The position numbers and the translations under genes are program-made. A stretch of 64,000 bases of DNA from Escherichia coli (lineage in GTDB: Bacteria; Pseudomonadota; Gammaproteobacteria; Enterobacterales; Enterobacteriaceae), in NCBI RefSeq assembly GCF_013122565.1, contig NZ_CP053258.1. One strand, 5' to 3'. Below the pieces are notes generated by a model. It did no database searches. It worked only from the letters and a program-made list of their open reading frames with translations, and was not told where the DNA came from. Every line of letters begins with the position of its first letter. Within the stretch, counting starts at the first letter, position 1. This document shows, piece after piece, positions 37,297-42,788 of the stretch.

Positions 37297-37457
37297 TTAA
37301 CGGTAATGAATAAGTTGCCGTGATATACCCGCAGAGATTTTTCCAGGCACGGCGGTAGCGTGCAGATAACCATTCATTATTAGAATAAACTTACGGCTGT
37401 GTGAGTTTAATTATTTATTGGCTGAATAAATTGCCAGGAAATAGATGGTGTTAAATA

Positions 37458-37718
37458 ATGGCCTATCATATAGAAATATGGGAAATTGAAGAAACTGATA
37501 AAGTAGTAAAATATGAATTTGGACCTATATCTTCTGACTATTGTAGATCTGATTACGGCGAGTTCGTGATAGATAAAAGAACGGGGGAGATGACATTAGT
37601 CAGACTGGTTAAAAACGATTCGGCTAATAAATTTTATTTGCGAGCGAGTTTTAAGATTCTGACCTGTTGGCGAAAGGGCTATTTGCCAAAAACAAGGAAT
37701 GAGCTTCTTAATAAGTAA
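37458..37718 (+). CDS. Hypothetical small protein (island ORF 1)
   Basis: 86-aa ORF in AT-rich DNA, first of five co-oriented small ORFs; weak SD; no recognised family. Confidence 0.4.
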   Translation: MAYHIEIWEIEETDKVVKYEFGPISSDYCRSDYGEFVIDKRTGEMTLVRLVKNDSANKFYLRASFKILTCWRKGYLPKTRNELLNK

Positions 37719-37731
37719 CTTTGCATAATAA

Positions 37732-38028
37732 GTGAATTTTCCCATTTTTGGGGGGCAGTCGTTGATTCTTACACAGTTTATGTTATGGGTGCAGAAAAAC
37801 ACTGGGCATAATATTAAAAGCAATGCCAATACCTTATCAACCAGCATAGTTATTGATTTTGATAATGATATCCATATTGCCAGATTTACAGGTTGGGATG
37901 ATTTAAGTTGTATGTCAGAAGTTATATGCGTTGAATCGGGTGATTATAAATTAAATCAGCGAAATGAATTCCATACTTATGATTCGCTAAGGATAATATT
38001 TGATGCTTTAATAGAAAGCATACAGTAA
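37732..38028 (+). CDS. Hypothetical small protein (island ORF 2)
   Basis: 98-aa ORF starting 13 nt after ORF 1 stop (GTG in track; internal ATG possible); no recognised family. Confidence 0.35.
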   Translation: MNFPIFGGQSLILTQFMLWVQKNTGHNIKSNANTLSTSIVIDFDNDIHIARFTGWDDLSCMSEVICVESGDYKLNQRNEFHTYDSLRIIFDALIESIQ

Positions 38029-38088
38029 CTTTTTTCTTAGTAAGAAAATAATATACACGAGTATATCTAATTAAATTTAGGATAGGCT

Positions 38089-38568
38089 ATGGATTTTCAC
38101 CTGGATATTTTGCTCCCTACACGTTTCGCTCCAGAGGAACTAGATCTACAAGAGGTTATGGTTCACTGGGGTGGGGAAACCTTTCATCGCGACCCTCCTG
38201 TATACGCCTGGTGTAATCATTATCTCTTGCAGAGATGTAATATACCGATTACTTATGGCCAACCTTTAGATGAGCACATAGACTTTAATGAATACCATAT
38301 TTACAACTTCAATGGTTCTATAGTCGATGAGCTGGAAATGGCTGTGAATAAAGGAAAGGATATTTCAACCGATCCTATAATTAAAATTATTAACAACCTG
38401 ATTAGCAAAAAGTACAGGGGGTGGTTAATCTTGTCATTAGATGATGAAAAAATAGAAGTAATTAAAAATATAAGTTCCCAGTGTTCTTTTCAATCGTTAT
38501 TAGTTGATGGACTAAAATGGGAAAGACCACATGGGGTGGCAATATTATATAATTCACACTTAATTTAA
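38089..38568 (+). CDS. Hypothetical protein (island ORF 3)
   Basis: 159-aa ORF with SD-like aggatagg before ATG; no signal peptide; no recognised family. Confidence 0.5.
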   Translation: MDFHLDILLPTRFAPEELDLQEVMVHWGGETFHRDPPVYAWCNHYLLQRCNIPITYGQPLDEHIDFNEYHIYNFNGSIVDELEMAVNKGKDISTDPIIKIINNLISKKYRGWLILSLDDEKIEVIKNISSQCSFQSLLVDGLKWERPHGVAILYNSHLI

Positions 38569-38585
38569 TTAATGAAAGGAAACAT

Positions 38586-38888
38586 ATGTATCGTGCAAAG
38601 GTTGTTTGGCTTACAGATAAAGAAGGTGGTAGAAGGAGCGCTCCTCCCATCGGTAGATACTATCCCGTCTCCAGATTTCCAGAGGAGCAAACTGACTGGC
38701 AAAATAATGCATGGAGTGTTGTTTTTGAATTGGAAAAACCTAATGTAACCGATGGACGTATCGTTTCAATGGGGGGCGTTCAGTTCCTTTTCGATACTGC
38801 CCCTGCACAATGGATGACTAAGTACGAGGCATTTGAAATCTACGAAGGACCAAGAAAAGTCGCAGATGTATTCTTGATAGAAAATTAA
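38586..38888 (+). CDS. Hypothetical small protein (island ORF 4)
   Basis: 100-aa ORF with good SD (aaaggaaacatATG) 17 nt after ORF 3; less AT-rich than neighbours; no recognised family. Confidence 0.55.
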   Translation: MYRAKVVWLTDKEGGRRSAPPIGRYYPVSRFPEEQTDWQNNAWSVVFELEKPNVTDGRIVSMGGVQFLFDTAPAQWMTKYEAFEIYEGPRKVADVFLIEN

Positions 38889-38948
38889 TTTTATTTATGT
38901 CAGTCAATTTAAGCATATTTGCGACTCAACGCATGTTCAGGAGTGTAA

Positions 38949-39482
38949 ATGCGCTACAAAAAAGTCATGCTATTATTGCTAACAGTCATTCTTTGCTTAA
39001 CCGGTCTTTATTCCTGCAACAAAAATTTTCTCTTACTCTGGGATGCCAATAATATTTATGTCAGTACAAAAAATAATATCGATAAAGACAAGGTGAAAAT
39101 AGAATTCGGCATCAGCGTCAACACGATCAACCGAGAAACGGATGCCGAATTATTTGCTGACAGAGATAAGTATACCGTGCTCTTCGATGGTAGCCTGAAA
39201 AGCAAGATGATAAACGAGTACGGCGAAAATGATTTTTTAATTACCTACGATGACCGCTGCTATTTATCATTTCGTCAATTTAAAACCAATCGTCGTCATC
39301 AACATGACTATTATTTTTACTTCTTTAACAAGGATGGGAATGTCTTCGTCACGGTCGAAATTAAAGGTGAGAACCCGCTTAAATTTACACGTAGTTTAAA
39401 TGATATGCGTCAGCAGTTTTCACCATTCCGTAAGGGTAGCACTTCTCACTCCTGCAAGGTTATTTCTTCAGATCCTTCTTAA
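38949..39482 (+). CDS. Hypothetical exported protein / possible lipoprotein (island ORF 5)
   Basis: 177-aa ORF with SD aggag before ATG; N-terminal signal-like segment MRYKKVMLLLLTVILCLTGLYSC; 3-prime end overlaps the convergent lipoprotein gene. Confidence 0.5.
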   Translation: MRYKKVMLLLLTVILCLTGLYSCNKNFLLLWDANNIYVSTKNNIDKDKVKIEFGISVNTINRETDAELFADRDKYTVLFDGSLKSKMINEYGENDFLITYDDRCYLSFRQFKTNRRHQHDYYFYFFNKDGNVFVTVEIKGENPLKFTRSLNDMRQQFSPFRKGSTSHSCKVISSDPS

Positions 39483-41502
39483 ACACTGGTTCTGGACAAT
39501 CACGACCAAAATGCGCAGCCCAGTCAAAAAATTTACCGTTTTTCACGTAGCGTTGATAAATTAATGCACCGGTTTCTGGATCAAGATATCTGACCCAACT
39601 TGCAGCATGGCATAAGACGGCAGCCCATGCTTGGGTTTTAGGGTGAAGTAAATAGGCAGATTGTTCGGCCCATTCCGCAGCCTGCCAGCGGTAATGCAAA
39701 AAGTGATCATCAGCGGTGGGGATCGCGTGGCGAATACGTTTATTTTCTTTACGACTTATCCATTGATCGTTATTGCTGTATTCAAAGGGGGACGAATATT
39801 GCCCGCTGGTAATGGCATAATCGGGATACATTTCATAAGCCACTAATTCGATACCACTGAAACGCAAAAGCCGCGCAGCTTCGTATTGTGCCTGGGCGCG
39901 TTGCTTATCAGGGATGTTTTTATTTTTCGCTATCGCCATTAAATCAGCCAGTTTTTGTGCGGCCTGGCGATAATTGGGAATATCAAACCAATTGATGGCC
40001 TGCTGATATTGACCATGACGTATTAATCGTCTCCCTAATAGCGCACGTAATTTAACATCCGTTGGAATGATATCTGGCGAAATATAATAACCGTAATTGC
40101 TATTGTTTAAATCTACAGGTTTTAAAGGGTGCTGAGGTGCCGGTACGTTGTTTTCAACAAACGCCTGTAACTCCGGCAAGGTCAAAACGTTTTCTGCAAC
40201 CCAGGCTAAATCGGCCCAATAGAGATCTTTCGCCTGGTAAAACAATGCAGCCGCCTGAAGATAATCATCGCGTTTTAATGCTAAAATCGCCTGCTCACTG
40301 GCAATACGGCAAGATGGGATAGTAACTTTATCTCCATGATAATAAGGGCTTTCCTGGTCCATACTTCCCCACATTTCATCGGTCGGGAACAGCGGGACTG
40401 CGCGAGCATAGTGACGCGTTGCCAGTGGAATATCTCCGGCTCGTAATGCCATTTTTGCTTTTAACCATTCGCTTAATCCACTTTCTGGCGCATCCTCCAA
40501 CAGCGTTTGTGCTAACGAATAATTTCCTGCCCGATACGCCAGTGCTGCCAGTCGATCGCTATAACTAAATCCTTTAACTCTGTGTTGACTTAGCAACTTA
40601 ATTAAACGGTCGCGATGCGTTGGACAGGTATAATCTACAAGGTCTTCAGTACAGGCTTCGCTAACATACCCCCAGTCATGACGAATAAAGAGCTCTGCGA
40701 TTACCAGTTGCTGAACCAGTGGATCATCAATAACCGATTCCAGCAGTGGTAAATTTTTCTCCCTGGTTAGATATAGCGAAATCATTCGTAACGAAGCTTT
40801 CCCGGAGGGCGAACCCTGGGCCGCTTGCCGGGCATAAATTTTTACTGCCGCAGCGACATCACCTTTTTTCAGATAATAATGCCCAATCTGACCGAGACTG
40901 GCGAGAGAGAGCTGCTCAGGATCGGCTGCGCCATTACGGACCTCTTCAATGATTTGCTGATAACGTTGTATGGCCTGCTCAGCAATTTCCTGATTAAAGC
41001 CGCCTTTATTGATTATAAGATCGAGATTGTCGTCAGTGGCATCAAATCCCCCTCTTGCCAGACTATATAGCGCAGCAAGACGCCATTCCCCTTGCTCTGT
41101 TTTCGGTAAGGCTAATAATTGCTGAAAGTAAGGGCTATCGTATTTTCCCTGATGAAAATCCTTAGCTCCTGAATAATAAAGCCACTGCGCATCAGATAAT
41201 GGTTTCTGCAATTTTTGCGCGATTTCCAGTGACCTATTTTGCACAGGAGACTCAGCATCATCATCTGTATTTTCCTGCGTTGCCTCCGCGGGCGTATTTT
41301 CATGCCATATTGGTAAACCAGGATCGCGTTTAGCCAACTGTTGTACTTCAAAGACAAAACTGCCATTTGGCATTTCCAGCAGTGCGCTATTGCGGTCAGT
41401 TAACAGATGGTTAGGAATAAATGGTCCACAGGCATTAACATTGGCGCTAATTAGTGAGAGAAATACAATAACGGAAATCCGCGATCTATTAGGGGATAAC
41501 AT
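39460..41502 (-). CDS. Hypothetical ~680 aa putative lipoprotein with helical-repeat (TPR-like) character
   Basis: Long intact ORF; likely start is ATG at 41502 preceded by strong SD aaggagag, giving signal peptide MLSPNRSRISVIVFLSLISANVNA-C; ORF-track GTG start at 41565 is an alternative; overlaps upstream gene stop; not present at this locus in K-12 as I remember it. Confidence 0.7.
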   Translation of the reverse strand: MLSPNRSRISVIVFLSLISANVNACGPFIPNHLLTDRNSALLEMPNGSFVFEVQQLAKRDPGLPIWHENTPAEATQENTDDDAESPVQNRSLEIAQKLQKPLSDAQWLYYSGAKDFHQGKYDSPYFQQLLALPKTEQGEWRLAALYSLARGGFDATDDNLDLIINKGGFNQEIAEQAIQRYQQIIEEVRNGAADPEQLSLASLGQIGHYYLKKGDVAAAVKIYARQAAQGSPSGKASLRMISLYLTREKNLPLLESVIDDPLVQQLVIAELFIRHDWGYVSEACTEDLVDYTCPTHRDRLIKLLSQHRVKGFSYSDRLAALAYRAGNYSLAQTLLEDAPESGLSEWLKAKMALRAGDIPLATRHYARAVPLFPTDEMWGSMDQESPYYHGDKVTIPSCRIASEQAILALKRDDYLQAAALFYQAKDLYWADLAWVAENVLTLPELQAFVENNVPAPQHPLKPVDLNNSNYGYYISPDIIPTDVKLRALLGRRLIRHGQYQQAINWFDIPNYRQAAQKLADLMAIAKNKNIPDKQRAQAQYEAARLLRFSGIELVAYEMYPDYAITSGQYSSPFEYSNNDQWISRKENKRIRHAIPTADDHFLHYRWQAAEWAEQSAYLLHPKTQAWAAVLCHAASWVRYLDPETGALIYQRYVKNGKFFDWAAHFGRDCPEPVFKKDLKK

Positions 41503-42694
41503 TGAACTCTCCTTGTATTTTTTTATTGCAGCGCGCCCATCCCAGCGGACTGCTTTCTCCGGCACGCAGCTGCCTGTCGCTTATCCTTACAAAATGCAGG
41601 CTGGATGAGCCAGGTTGCACCTGATAGTGGCTTACTCCATCAGCGAATAGACAATCTGCATTGGGCAGAATTATTTGTTTTGGCAACGGCGCATCAATTA
41701 CGCCGCTGTTTTTAAAGGCCAGATCAAAAAGTTGCTTGTCTGTATGTTGAGTAATTATTAACGACCAGCGCGGAGTCAGCGGTTGATGTCGAATCACGGC
41801 TTCCAGTGTTGTCAGTGACCAGGCGCGGCGATCGCCTGCTAACGGTAGCCGAAACCATACCAACCCCTGTAATCCACGCGGTGGTTGCTGTTCTATATAT
41901 TGAATAAACTCGGCAATCGTTTGTGGAGATACACTTAGTTCTTGCATTTCATCAGCAACGTATAGCGGGGATTCGCTTTCGACACGATTATCACTGGTGA
42001 GTGCGGAGCCATAAGCGGGCAATGCGATGAAAAAAGGGTGCGTGGTTTGCCTGGCATATTGCTTTACCCAACGCTGCGCCAGACTGACATCTAACAGGCC
42101 TTTTTCGGGCGACAGCACGTTATGTACCTGGAAAACCGAAGTGTCCGCAATCCGCAATAATCGAGCGAGATGTGGTGATTCAAGCCAGGTGGGCAGGGCG
42201 GTAACGCTGAGTTTTAGATTTGTGGGAAGTGCCTGATGTAACGCACTAAGTAGGGTCTGATATTCCGGCAATTTTGCTGTTGGCGCGTCATAATCAATTT
42301 CCACCCCTGCCAGTGTAATACCTGCGTTTTGCCACTCACGTTGGGTTTGTTGAATATGCTGTATTATTTGCTGGTTATTAAGCCCTGTTAGCTGACCATC
42401 GAGTCGCGCGACCAGCCAGACCGGGCGACCATCCTGCTTAATAAGCGAAGTATTCACCGCAAAATGTCGGATGCCTTCCTGTAGATGAAATTGCATCCCG
42501 AGTATGCGCAGTGTAGAAAAAAGTGAACGGCTTTGTTTTAGAGCGCTGGTATGTTCTGCTGTCCATACACGTTGCCAGATATAGGCTTGCTGATCAAAGC
42601 GAAGCGGCTGTGAGGGGGTAAATAAATTATGCAGCCCATAACCCAGGCAGATCAGAAGAAGTGAAGCTGCAATAATCCTTTTGCAAGATGGCAT
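41489..42694 (-). CDS. Hypothetical secreted protein (~400 aa)
   Basis: 401-aa ORF with N-terminal signal peptide MPSCKRIIAASLLLICLGYGL; lies just downstream of the kdgK terminator on the same strand; stop overlaps next gene start. Confidence 0.7.
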   Translation of the reverse strand: MPSCKRIIAASLLLICLGYGLHNLFTPSQPLRFDQQAYIWQRVWTAEHTSALKQSRSLFSTLRILGMQFHLQEGIRHFAVNTSLIKQDGRPVWLVARLDGQLTGLNNQQIIQHIQQTQREWQNAGITLAGVEIDYDAPTAKLPEYQTLLSALHQALPTNLKLSVTALPTWLESPHLARLLRIADTSVFQVHNVLSPEKGLLDVSLAQRWVKQYARQTTHPFFIALPAYGSALTSDNRVESESPLYVADEMQELSVSPQTIAEFIQYIEQQPPRGLQGLVWFRLPLAGDRRAWSLTTLEAVIRHQPLTPRWSLIITQHTDKQLFDLAFKNSGVIDAPLPKQIILPNADCLFADGVSHYQVQPGSSSLHFVRISDRQLRAGESSPLGWARCNKKIQGEFNVIP

Positions 42695-42747
42695 ATTGTC
42701 ACGGCATAACGATCATCAACAGGGCGGTAGTGTACTGCCGAAACTAT

Positions 42748-42776
42748 TAACGGAGAACGAATATCTACCCGTTCTC
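42748..42776 (-). terminator. Hairpin terminator after kdgK
   Basis: Stem cggagaacg / cgttctccg immediately downstream of kdgK stop on the minus strand. Confidence 0.55.
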
Positions 42777-42788
42777 CGTCAAAAACCA

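Follow-up and report, generated by a model that had tools for sequence, protein, structure and literature searches.

A 23-nt convergent overlap at the tail-to-tail junction of two gene modules in an Escherichia coli island

Introduction

When two genes run towards each other and their reading frames cross at the ends, the overlap may be a regulatory device, the sign of a wrongly called frame or just an accident of how both genes came together. This question is raised by a chromosome segment of Escherichia coli (contig NZ_CP053258.1 of assembly GCF_013122565.1), from which a stretch of 64,000 nucleotides, hereafter the window, was analysed. In an island of this segment, a plus-strand frame here called ORF5 and a minus-strand gene for a TPR-containing putative lipoprotein end inside each other. 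The first-pass annotation of the window took this arrangement as an indication of transcriptional interference or antisense coupling between two halves of the island, or else of a spurious frame.

Convergent overlapping pairs were reportedly traced by Fukuda and colleagues in 1999 to the loss or displacement of a stop codon and the elongation of the 3′ end. A survey of 58 species found that the phase 123:132 is the commonest one (49%) among convergent overlaps of at least 5 nt, that a stop-codon-mutation model fits the origin of convergent overlaps, and that 58 of them can be counted in the E. coli genome (Lillo and Krakauer 2007, PMC2174442). Among well-characterised overlaps, the convergent ones amount to about 7%, and overlaps have been ascribed to 3′ extension after deletion or disruption of a stop codon (Palleja et al. 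2008, PMC2478687).

The Island between yhjJ and kdgK

The window contains an Escherichia-type chromosome segment with the gene order pdeK, dctA, yhjJ, island, kdgK, pdeH and yhjG, as seen by comparison with the order in K-12. The division of the island into two halves, already advanced in the first-pass annotation, is clearly visible in its composition: an AT-rich plus-strand array with 31–42% GC faces a DUF3142-TPR operon with 43–50%, and both lie between flanks of 50–58% (Table 1). Such a step in GC across the junction points to two modules of different origins. K-12 itself was discarded as an "empty site" from which the borders of the insertion could be drawn, its yhjJ-kdgK spacer being unrelated sequence.

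The four small ORFs upstream of ORF5 form part of an array whose content differs from strain to strain in the loci compared. The 98-aa ORF at 37732–38028 (+) is a clear homologue of the TriTu immunity proteins (Pfam PF24689, E = 7.5e-17), and the other three small ORFs gave no match in a Pfam search. As no toxin gene was seen, the array looks like an orphan immunity-type array. Several other ORFs of 50–100 aa that overlap real genes in different frames, such as a 54-aa ORF at 39400–39564 (+) across the junction, look like chance frames.

Table 1. Features of the island (positions in the window) and gene arrangements found at the yhjJ-kdgK site.
Feature	Position or loci	Strand	Basis or remark
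Island	~37300-42745		between yhjJ and kdgK
Four small AT-rich ORFs upstream of ORF5	37458-37718, 37732-38028, 38089-38568, 38586-38888	+	ORF listing
ORF5, 177 aa, stop TAA 39480-39482	38949-39482	+	predicted lipoprotein or membrane-anchored beta-sandwich protein
ORF5 conserved core, aa 24-155	39018-39413	+	alignment, purifying selection, confident strands E35-E149
ORF5 variable C-terminal tail, aa 156-177	39414-39479	+	alignment, pN/pS, pLDDT
TGCAAGGTTA, last stretch common to all Escherichia ORF5 tail alleles	39453-39462	+	nucleotide alignment
Convergent overlap, exactly 23 nt	39460-39482	.	ORF listing and sequence
TPR-containing putative lipoprotein gene, 681 aa from ATG 41505	39460-41505	-	second gene of DUF3142-TPR operon
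TPR non-conserved C-terminal tail KKDLKK	39463-39480	-	C-termini of 28 homologues
DUF3142 gene, 401 aa, first of operon	41492-42694	-	Pfam PF11340, E=5e-75
Hairpin downstream of kdgK	42750-42779	.	island's right border; read through by ORF5 in strains lacking the TPR operon
Arrangement A: ORF5 facing TPR-DUF3142	L002, L003, L011		
Arrangement B: at least four small plus-strand ORFs and ORF5 facing TPR-DUF3142	window, L001, L012		
Arrangement C: small ORFs and ORF5, without operon	~170 complete E. coli genomes		
Arrangement E: longer plus-strand array	L007		
Arrangement F: TPR-DUF3142 and only last ~94 nt of ORF5	L008 (Escherichia sp.)		
Arrangement G: TPR with tail TAVIKR, 100-nt spacer, no ORF5	L009, L010		

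ORF5 and Its Variable Tail

The first-pass annotation had suspected that one of the two frames, most likely the C-terminus of ORF5, was not real, and this suspicion was borne out only in part. ORF5 is a genuine gene, and its reality rests on its homologues, the selection acting on its core, its Shine-Dalgarno (SD) sequence and its fold. Database searches returned 172 homologues, with 50–63% identity in Bacteroidota, from which all the named examples outside Escherichia/Shigella come (Riemerella, Marivirga, Tenacibaculum and Cyclobacteriaceae), and an AGGAG motif lies 6 nt upstream of the ATG. The family alignment reveals 31 residues that are invariant, all of them lying between aa 24 and 148, together with the motifs YGENDFL, SFRQFK and RRHQHDY; all the family-invariant residues are present in the Escherichia protein, and the ORF is intact in every genome examined with arrangement A or B. 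Moreover, comparison of six Escherichia alleles gave for the core a pS of 0.39 and a pN of 0.063 (pN/pS 0.16), and the AlphaFold (AF2) model, with a pLDDT of 83.8, shows an N-terminal helix followed by a beta-sandwich at residues 35–150. A side observation is the low GC content of the gene (36–39%), which together with the restriction of the named homologues to Bacteroidota suggests a cross-phylum transfer of ORF5.

A rather different picture is offered by the tail, and it is here that the earlier suspicion stands: the C-terminal ~22 residues (QQFSPFRKGSTSHSCKVISSDPS) are lineage-specific and do not align with the tail of the Bacteroidota proteins (YxCNxPxDSAGxIYNMIEL), constraint on aa 156–170 is relaxed (pN/pS 0.58), and the last three blocks of the model are of low confidence (pLDDT 74, 64 and 49). 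These traits could be taken as indications that ORF5, or at any rate the overlapping frame, does not truly code for protein and is a decaying remnant, in which case there would be no true overlap, and the same could be said of the strains in which IS5 cuts the gene, of another one that keeps a 94-nt remnant, and of the lack of any Pfam or NCBIfam family match. A decaying frame, however, is at odds with the clear purifying selection on the core (pN/pS 0.16, pS 0.39), with the complete set of invariant residues, the intact ORF in all A and B genomes examined, the strong SD and the confident fold, so that we find the remnant explanation very hard to believe. No in-frame stop precedes the tail either, so that any translation of the gene would include it.

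As to what the protein does, ORF5 gave no significant match against Pfam and NCBIfam, no match in a sequence-profile search of the PDB and, when its AF2 model was compared with the PDB by Foldseek, no hit at E ≤ 0.001; the best Foldseek match, a transthyretin-like structure (E = 0.075, TM 0.33), was taken as noise. The predicted leader of the protein ends with a lipobox-like motif (…LTGLYSC, judged by eye), and UniRef labels one homologue (P0002) as "Lipoprotein". The Cys of this motif is present in the Escherichia copies and missing from the Bacteroidota homologues. In its position, as the last gene of a strain-variable AT-rich array with a TriTu homologue, ORF5 resembles the members of variable orphan immunity-type arrays (TriTu, PF24689), but unlike them it has no counterpart among the known immunity families, shows a putative signal or lipoprotein leader and lies near no toxin gene. 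In this regard, a search for signs of a polymorphic-toxin immunity protein pointed only to the neighbouring ORF as TriTu, and in two Bacteroidota ORF5 loci neither a conserved neighbourhood nor a toxin-domain gene was found among the Pfam-annotated neighbours. Our best guess is that ORF5 would be an envelope-anchored beta-sandwich protein, encoded in a variable array of small genes with a TriTu immunity homologue among them.

The DUF3142-TPR Operon

On the opposite strand, the TPR gene stops with a TAA at 39462–39460. Its longest ORF form, from a GTG at 41565, would encode 701 aa. AGGAG stands in front of the ATG at 41505, and the gene read from there agrees with the PGAP gene models of 664–680 aa in E. 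coli. We found 93 homologues in Escherichia, Pseudocitrobacter, Serratia, Klebsiella, Budvicia and Pseudomonas. The putative signal peptide ends …VNAC-GPF, and the …ACGP… N-terminus, with its Cys, is invariant in all the homologues (the lipobox was judged by eye). The TPR label is plausible but weak: the Pfam TPR models remain under the gathering threshold (18.2 bits vs 27.9 for TPR_7), and support comes from precomputed TPR matches in some distant homologues and from PGAP, which names some alleles "tetratricopeptide repeat protein".

The C-termini of 28 homologues show that the conserved domain ends with the motif FG(R/Y)xCPxP(V/E/D)F, whose last Phe codon lies at 39481–39483 in the window. 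What follows is variable: three homologues (P0156, P0162 and P0166) lack any tail and end at …PEF/PVF, and the others have either unrelated tails of 3–17 residues, with TAVIKR, RKELKK and RMELKK as examples, or a long C-terminal extension with a predicted transmembrane anchor. Since the conserved sequence stops at this Phe, the share of the TPR gene in the overlap is reduced to the variable KKDLKK and the stop codon. The conservation of both C-termini, which the first-pass annotation had proposed to check, thus turned out to be low on either side of the junction, in aa 156–177 of ORF5 as in KKDLKK, which is variable or absent among TPR homologues.

The TPR gene also showed a mosaic structure when the window (39650–41400) was compared with L008, L012 and L009: its central ~1.8 kb is only 52–73% identical between allele classes, and conservation across the classes is found in the DUF3142 gene (82–95%) and in the last ~200 nt of TPR (90–95% identical). 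Such a distribution of identity is characteristic of allelic replacement, or of diversifying selection, on what would be an envelope protein.

The first gene of the operon matches DUF3142 with 252.4 bits, well above the Pfam gathering cut-off of 30, and its end overlaps the start of TPR co-directionally by 14 nt (41492–41505). An identical 14-nt overlap occurs in Pseudocitrobacter and Serratia, and TPR is the second gene of a DUF3142-TPR pair in all the loci read; conservation of this overlap suggests translational coupling of a two-gene operon, which, as far as gene order tells, is spread across Enterobacterales and Pseudomonas. The copy in the window is like those operons elsewhere in its gene order, the 14-nt overlap, the ACGP N-terminus and the FGxxCPxPxF C-terminal motif. 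It differs from them in what lies beyond the TPR stop codon: only the Escherichia version abuts ORF5, whereas the others are followed by a spacer of 71–304 nt.

The Overlap and Its Phase

The first-pass annotation had put the convergent overlap between the 177-aa ORF and the ~680-aa gene at about 23 nt, and we can now give this length as exact. On the plus strand it comprises codons 171–177 of ORF5 plus its TAA, and on the minus strand the codons for KKDLKK, the TAA and two bases of the Phe codon, with a codon-position pairing of 1:1, 2:3 and 3:2, that is, phase 123:132. It is a convergent overlap of the ordinary 3′-extension kind, and it already stands in the RefSeq annotation: RefSeq/PGAP shows the identical 23-nt overlap in E. 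coli, where the junction is present in 30 of 5,426 complete genomes, and in all of those 30 two features are annotated under it. The overlap is restricted, on the alignments of both families, to non-conserved tails of the two proteins.

The length of 23 nt was found in every genome having both genes, despite the allele classes of TPR being only 52–73% identical in their centre. Within the overlap, the alleles differ by four substitutions, which both frames tolerate. For TPR these amount to K>R, K>M, D>E and one silent change, and the same four positions read in ORF5 as two silent changes, D>V and TAA>TGA, the stop thus being kept as either TAA or TGA. Judging from these substitutions, neither frame looks tightly constrained. 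A constant length and a stop that is always TAA or TGA could reflect selection, of which they are the sole hint, although shared descent of a block that is 90–95% identical explains them equally well. Moreover, when the frame of ORF5 is followed along the antisense of the TPR gene, stops are met at 28 of the 681 codons (4.1% per codon), which gives a probability of about 22% of finding the first stop within six codons past the junction. A read-on of six codons is therefore unremarkable, and the 23-nt length is compatible with chance.

Rearrangements at the Junction

Between yhjJ and kdgK lies a hotspot of rearrangement: at least six arrangements of this intergenic site were distinguished among the window and loci L001–L013 (Table 1). 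Insertions of IS5 or ISKpn26 are found at the site (L005, H15), including the IS5 copies that interrupt ORF5 in some strains, and the DUF3142 gene is split in both examples of arrangement G. In arrangement A, the commonest form among the carriers, ORF5 is the sole plus-strand gene beside TPR, and in arrangement F the segment 37314–39388 is missing. We considered a recent and simple deletion leading from B to C as the origin of arrangement C and rejected it, as the ORF5 tail (after 39419) is there a strongly diverged allele.

The end of ORF5 changes with its surroundings: 171 aa in L007, 176–177 aa in arrangements A and B, and 194 aa in L004. The shortest form belongs to arrangement E, where the protein ends …SSCEIK*, the stop comes two codons past the shared motif and a co-directional gene is found directly next; a homologue with such an earlier end is one of the observations that the first-pass annotation had named as speaking against its reading of the locus. 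The longest form was observed in arrangement C (L004 4051–4635, E. coli THO-008), in which the frame crosses the kdgK hairpin and enters a 29-nt convergent overlap with the 3′ end of kdgK.

A nucleotide alignment of the tails from five arrangements (A, B, C, E and F) located the point at which they part. All the alleles can be aligned up to the end of TGCAAGGTTA, and past it they run into the antisense of TPR, into the kdgK hairpin or into a stop of their own after two codons, followed by another gene. The breakpoint, at ~39462, coincides with the TPR stop codon. That ORF5 alleles are homologous up to this point and then run into differing downstream sequence indicates that the overlap is a by-product of the junction. 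Both modules also exist separately: a DUF3142-TPR pair without any ORF5 homologue, and with spacers of 71–304 nt, is found in Pseudocitrobacter, Serratia and an Escherichia variant, and ORF5 homologues without TPR occur in Bacteroidota. The block formed by the last ~200 nt of TPR and the tail of ORF5 is 90–95% identical and is kept even where the centre of TPR is only 52–73% identical. The junction itself was seen only in Escherichia genomes and in metagenome contigs carrying the same yhjJ-kdgK locus.

Such a joint inheritance could also mean that ORF5 and the DUF3142-TPR envelope proteins are partners in function, and that the junction keeps the three genes linked as a transferable unit. In this line, the ORF5, TPR and DUF3142 proteins all carry signal sequences, the three genes of arrangement A stand close together between yhjJ and kdgK, the tail of ORF5 and the 3′ end of TPR have stayed joined also where the TPR centre has been replaced, and the Escherichia ORF5 has gained a lipobox-like Cys (LTGLYSC) that the Bacteroidota homologues lack. 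We nevertheless regard a partnership as very unlikely, because the loci read in Serratia, Klebsiella, Pseudocitrobacter and Pseudomonas have DUF3142-TPR pairs without an ORF5 neighbour, the Bacteroidota homologues of ORF5 have neither DUF3142 nor TPR within 7 kb, ~170 E. coli genomes keep ORF5 without the operon, and in other strains ORF5 sits inside a variable array of small ORFs.

Terminators and Regulatory Coupling

Bidirectional intrinsic terminators between convergent genes were reportedly described by Ju and colleagues in 2019. Further reports of such elements are available (bioRxiv 10.1101/2022.10.23.513370). The ORF5-TPR locus resembles those loci in that both convergent gene ends need termination in a small space, but it differs from them at the decisive point, as no GC-rich hairpin with flanking A and U tracts was found at the convergent ends. 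The claim in the first-pass annotation that there is no room for a terminator between the genes can even be extended: on neither strand did the scan reveal a terminator-like site closer to the junction than ~400 nt, the nearest plus-strand candidate, a weak one, lying at 39887. When 131-nt segments around the junction were folded, none of the four was more stable than its shuffles (z from -0.16 to +1.84), an Rfam search of the junction (E ≤ 1) gave no match, and no promoter enrichment was found there. In other loci, no terminator 3′ of the TPR homologues could be assigned to the TPR operon, the single match, in Serratia, being on the opposite strand. Without such a hairpin, termination must be Rho-dependent, collision-based or located inside the opposite gene. 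Each transcript would then have to finish within the opposite gene, which makes some antisense RNA likely.

From here it is a short step to a selected regulatory device, in which the ORF5 array and the DUF3142-TPR operon would repress each other through polymerase collision or antisense RNA. What defines an excludon, as known from Listeria, is a set of long antisense transcripts that have been mapped, together with opposite functions of the units involved. Our locus is like them in having oppositely oriented units with no terminator between, so that reciprocal antisense transcription is physically possible, and it is unlike them in that it is described here from its sequence and that the comparative data speak against a selected arrangement. 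A device of this kind would agree with the absence of an intrinsic terminator at or near the junction on both strands, with a 23-nt overlap and an ORF5 stop position that are kept in all the genomes with both genes, diverged TPR alleles included, and with the three-gene arrangement A being the commonest carrier form. Conservation, however, goes no further than a single Escherichia block with 90–95% identity, for which descent is explanation enough, and the comparison of genomes and metagenome contigs revealed neither an independent origin nor conservation beyond close relatives, as would be expected of an excludon-like element. Carriers are also a small minority (30 among 5,426 complete E. coli genomes), and a structured element, an Rfam family and promoter enrichment were all looked for at the junction and not found. 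Either partner also occurs alone, and in genomes that lack the operon ORF5 makes another convergent overlap, that of 29 nt with kdgK, which argues for accident and against design. For these reasons the antisense coupling or interference advanced in the first-pass annotation finds no comparative support, and we consider a selected device distinctly unlikely.

We give even less credit to a more specific version, in which the zero-spacer junction would work as a terminator-less collision site or Rho site that makes expression of the array and of the operon mutually exclusive. If true, a horizontally acquired island of Escherichia would contain a natural switch of the excludon type.

Origin of the Overlap

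The explanation that we hold as probable, and with good confidence, is that two genuine genes converge here with no spacer at all, and that their overlap would be a neutral by-product of 3′ extension and not a regulatory device. The AT-rich plus-strand array, with ORF5 as its last gene, and the DUF3142-TPR operon would have been brought together by their 3′ ends in the interval between yhjJ and kdgK. At the joint, the own sequence of ORF5 ends at ~39462, and the frame continues through the antisense of the last six codons of TPR until it meets the TAA at 39480–39482, a read-on that adds only seven unconstrained and probably disordered residues (VISSDPS) to the protein. Thereafter the arrangement would have been inherited by descent in a minority lineage of Escherichia. 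The order of the rearrangements is inferred, and the event behind it may have been an insertion or a deletion.

General E. coli biology offers Rho-dependent termination, polymerase collision and H-NS silencing of an AT-rich island as ways of dealing with transcripts in such a setting. By any of the three, the transcripts of both modules may end inside the opposite gene, giving rise at most to incidental antisense RNA, with no selected coupling.

Compared with the convergent overlaps known to come from 3′ extension, the one described here is equally short, has the phase 123:132 and consists of one frame running on to the next stop. As in those cases, it is confined to non-conserved C-termini and kept only among close relatives, and hairpin terminators, often missing from genes with known overlaps of this class, are missing here as well. 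Two differences are worth mentioning. Instead of going back to a simple point mutation in a stop codon, the read-on of ORF5 is tied to a rearrangement junction between two differently derived modules, and ORF5 shows three different ends in three arrangements.

Both gene models are correct as called, ORF5 being no artefact and only its last residues accidental. The matter is of little weight for biology, and its practical value lies in annotation. The locus can serve as a worked example of how a rearrangement junction gives rise to a convergent overlap, and as a warning against taking such overlaps for regulatory signals before transcripts have been mapped.

Other Observations

Some of the side findings may prove more useful than the overlap itself, namely the presence of a protein family of Bacteroidota type at an Escherichia hotspot, the mosaic structure of the TPR lipoprotein gene and the many arrangements between yhjJ and kdgK. 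Regarding the DUF3142 protein, a literature search gave a single incidental mention of the domain, and no mention was found of the PDB code 8Y6T. Solved structures (8y6t and 9vtv) do exist for a "DUF3142 domain-containing protein", and residues 110–190 of the protein encoded in the window match chain 8y6t weakly (E = 4.8e-5).
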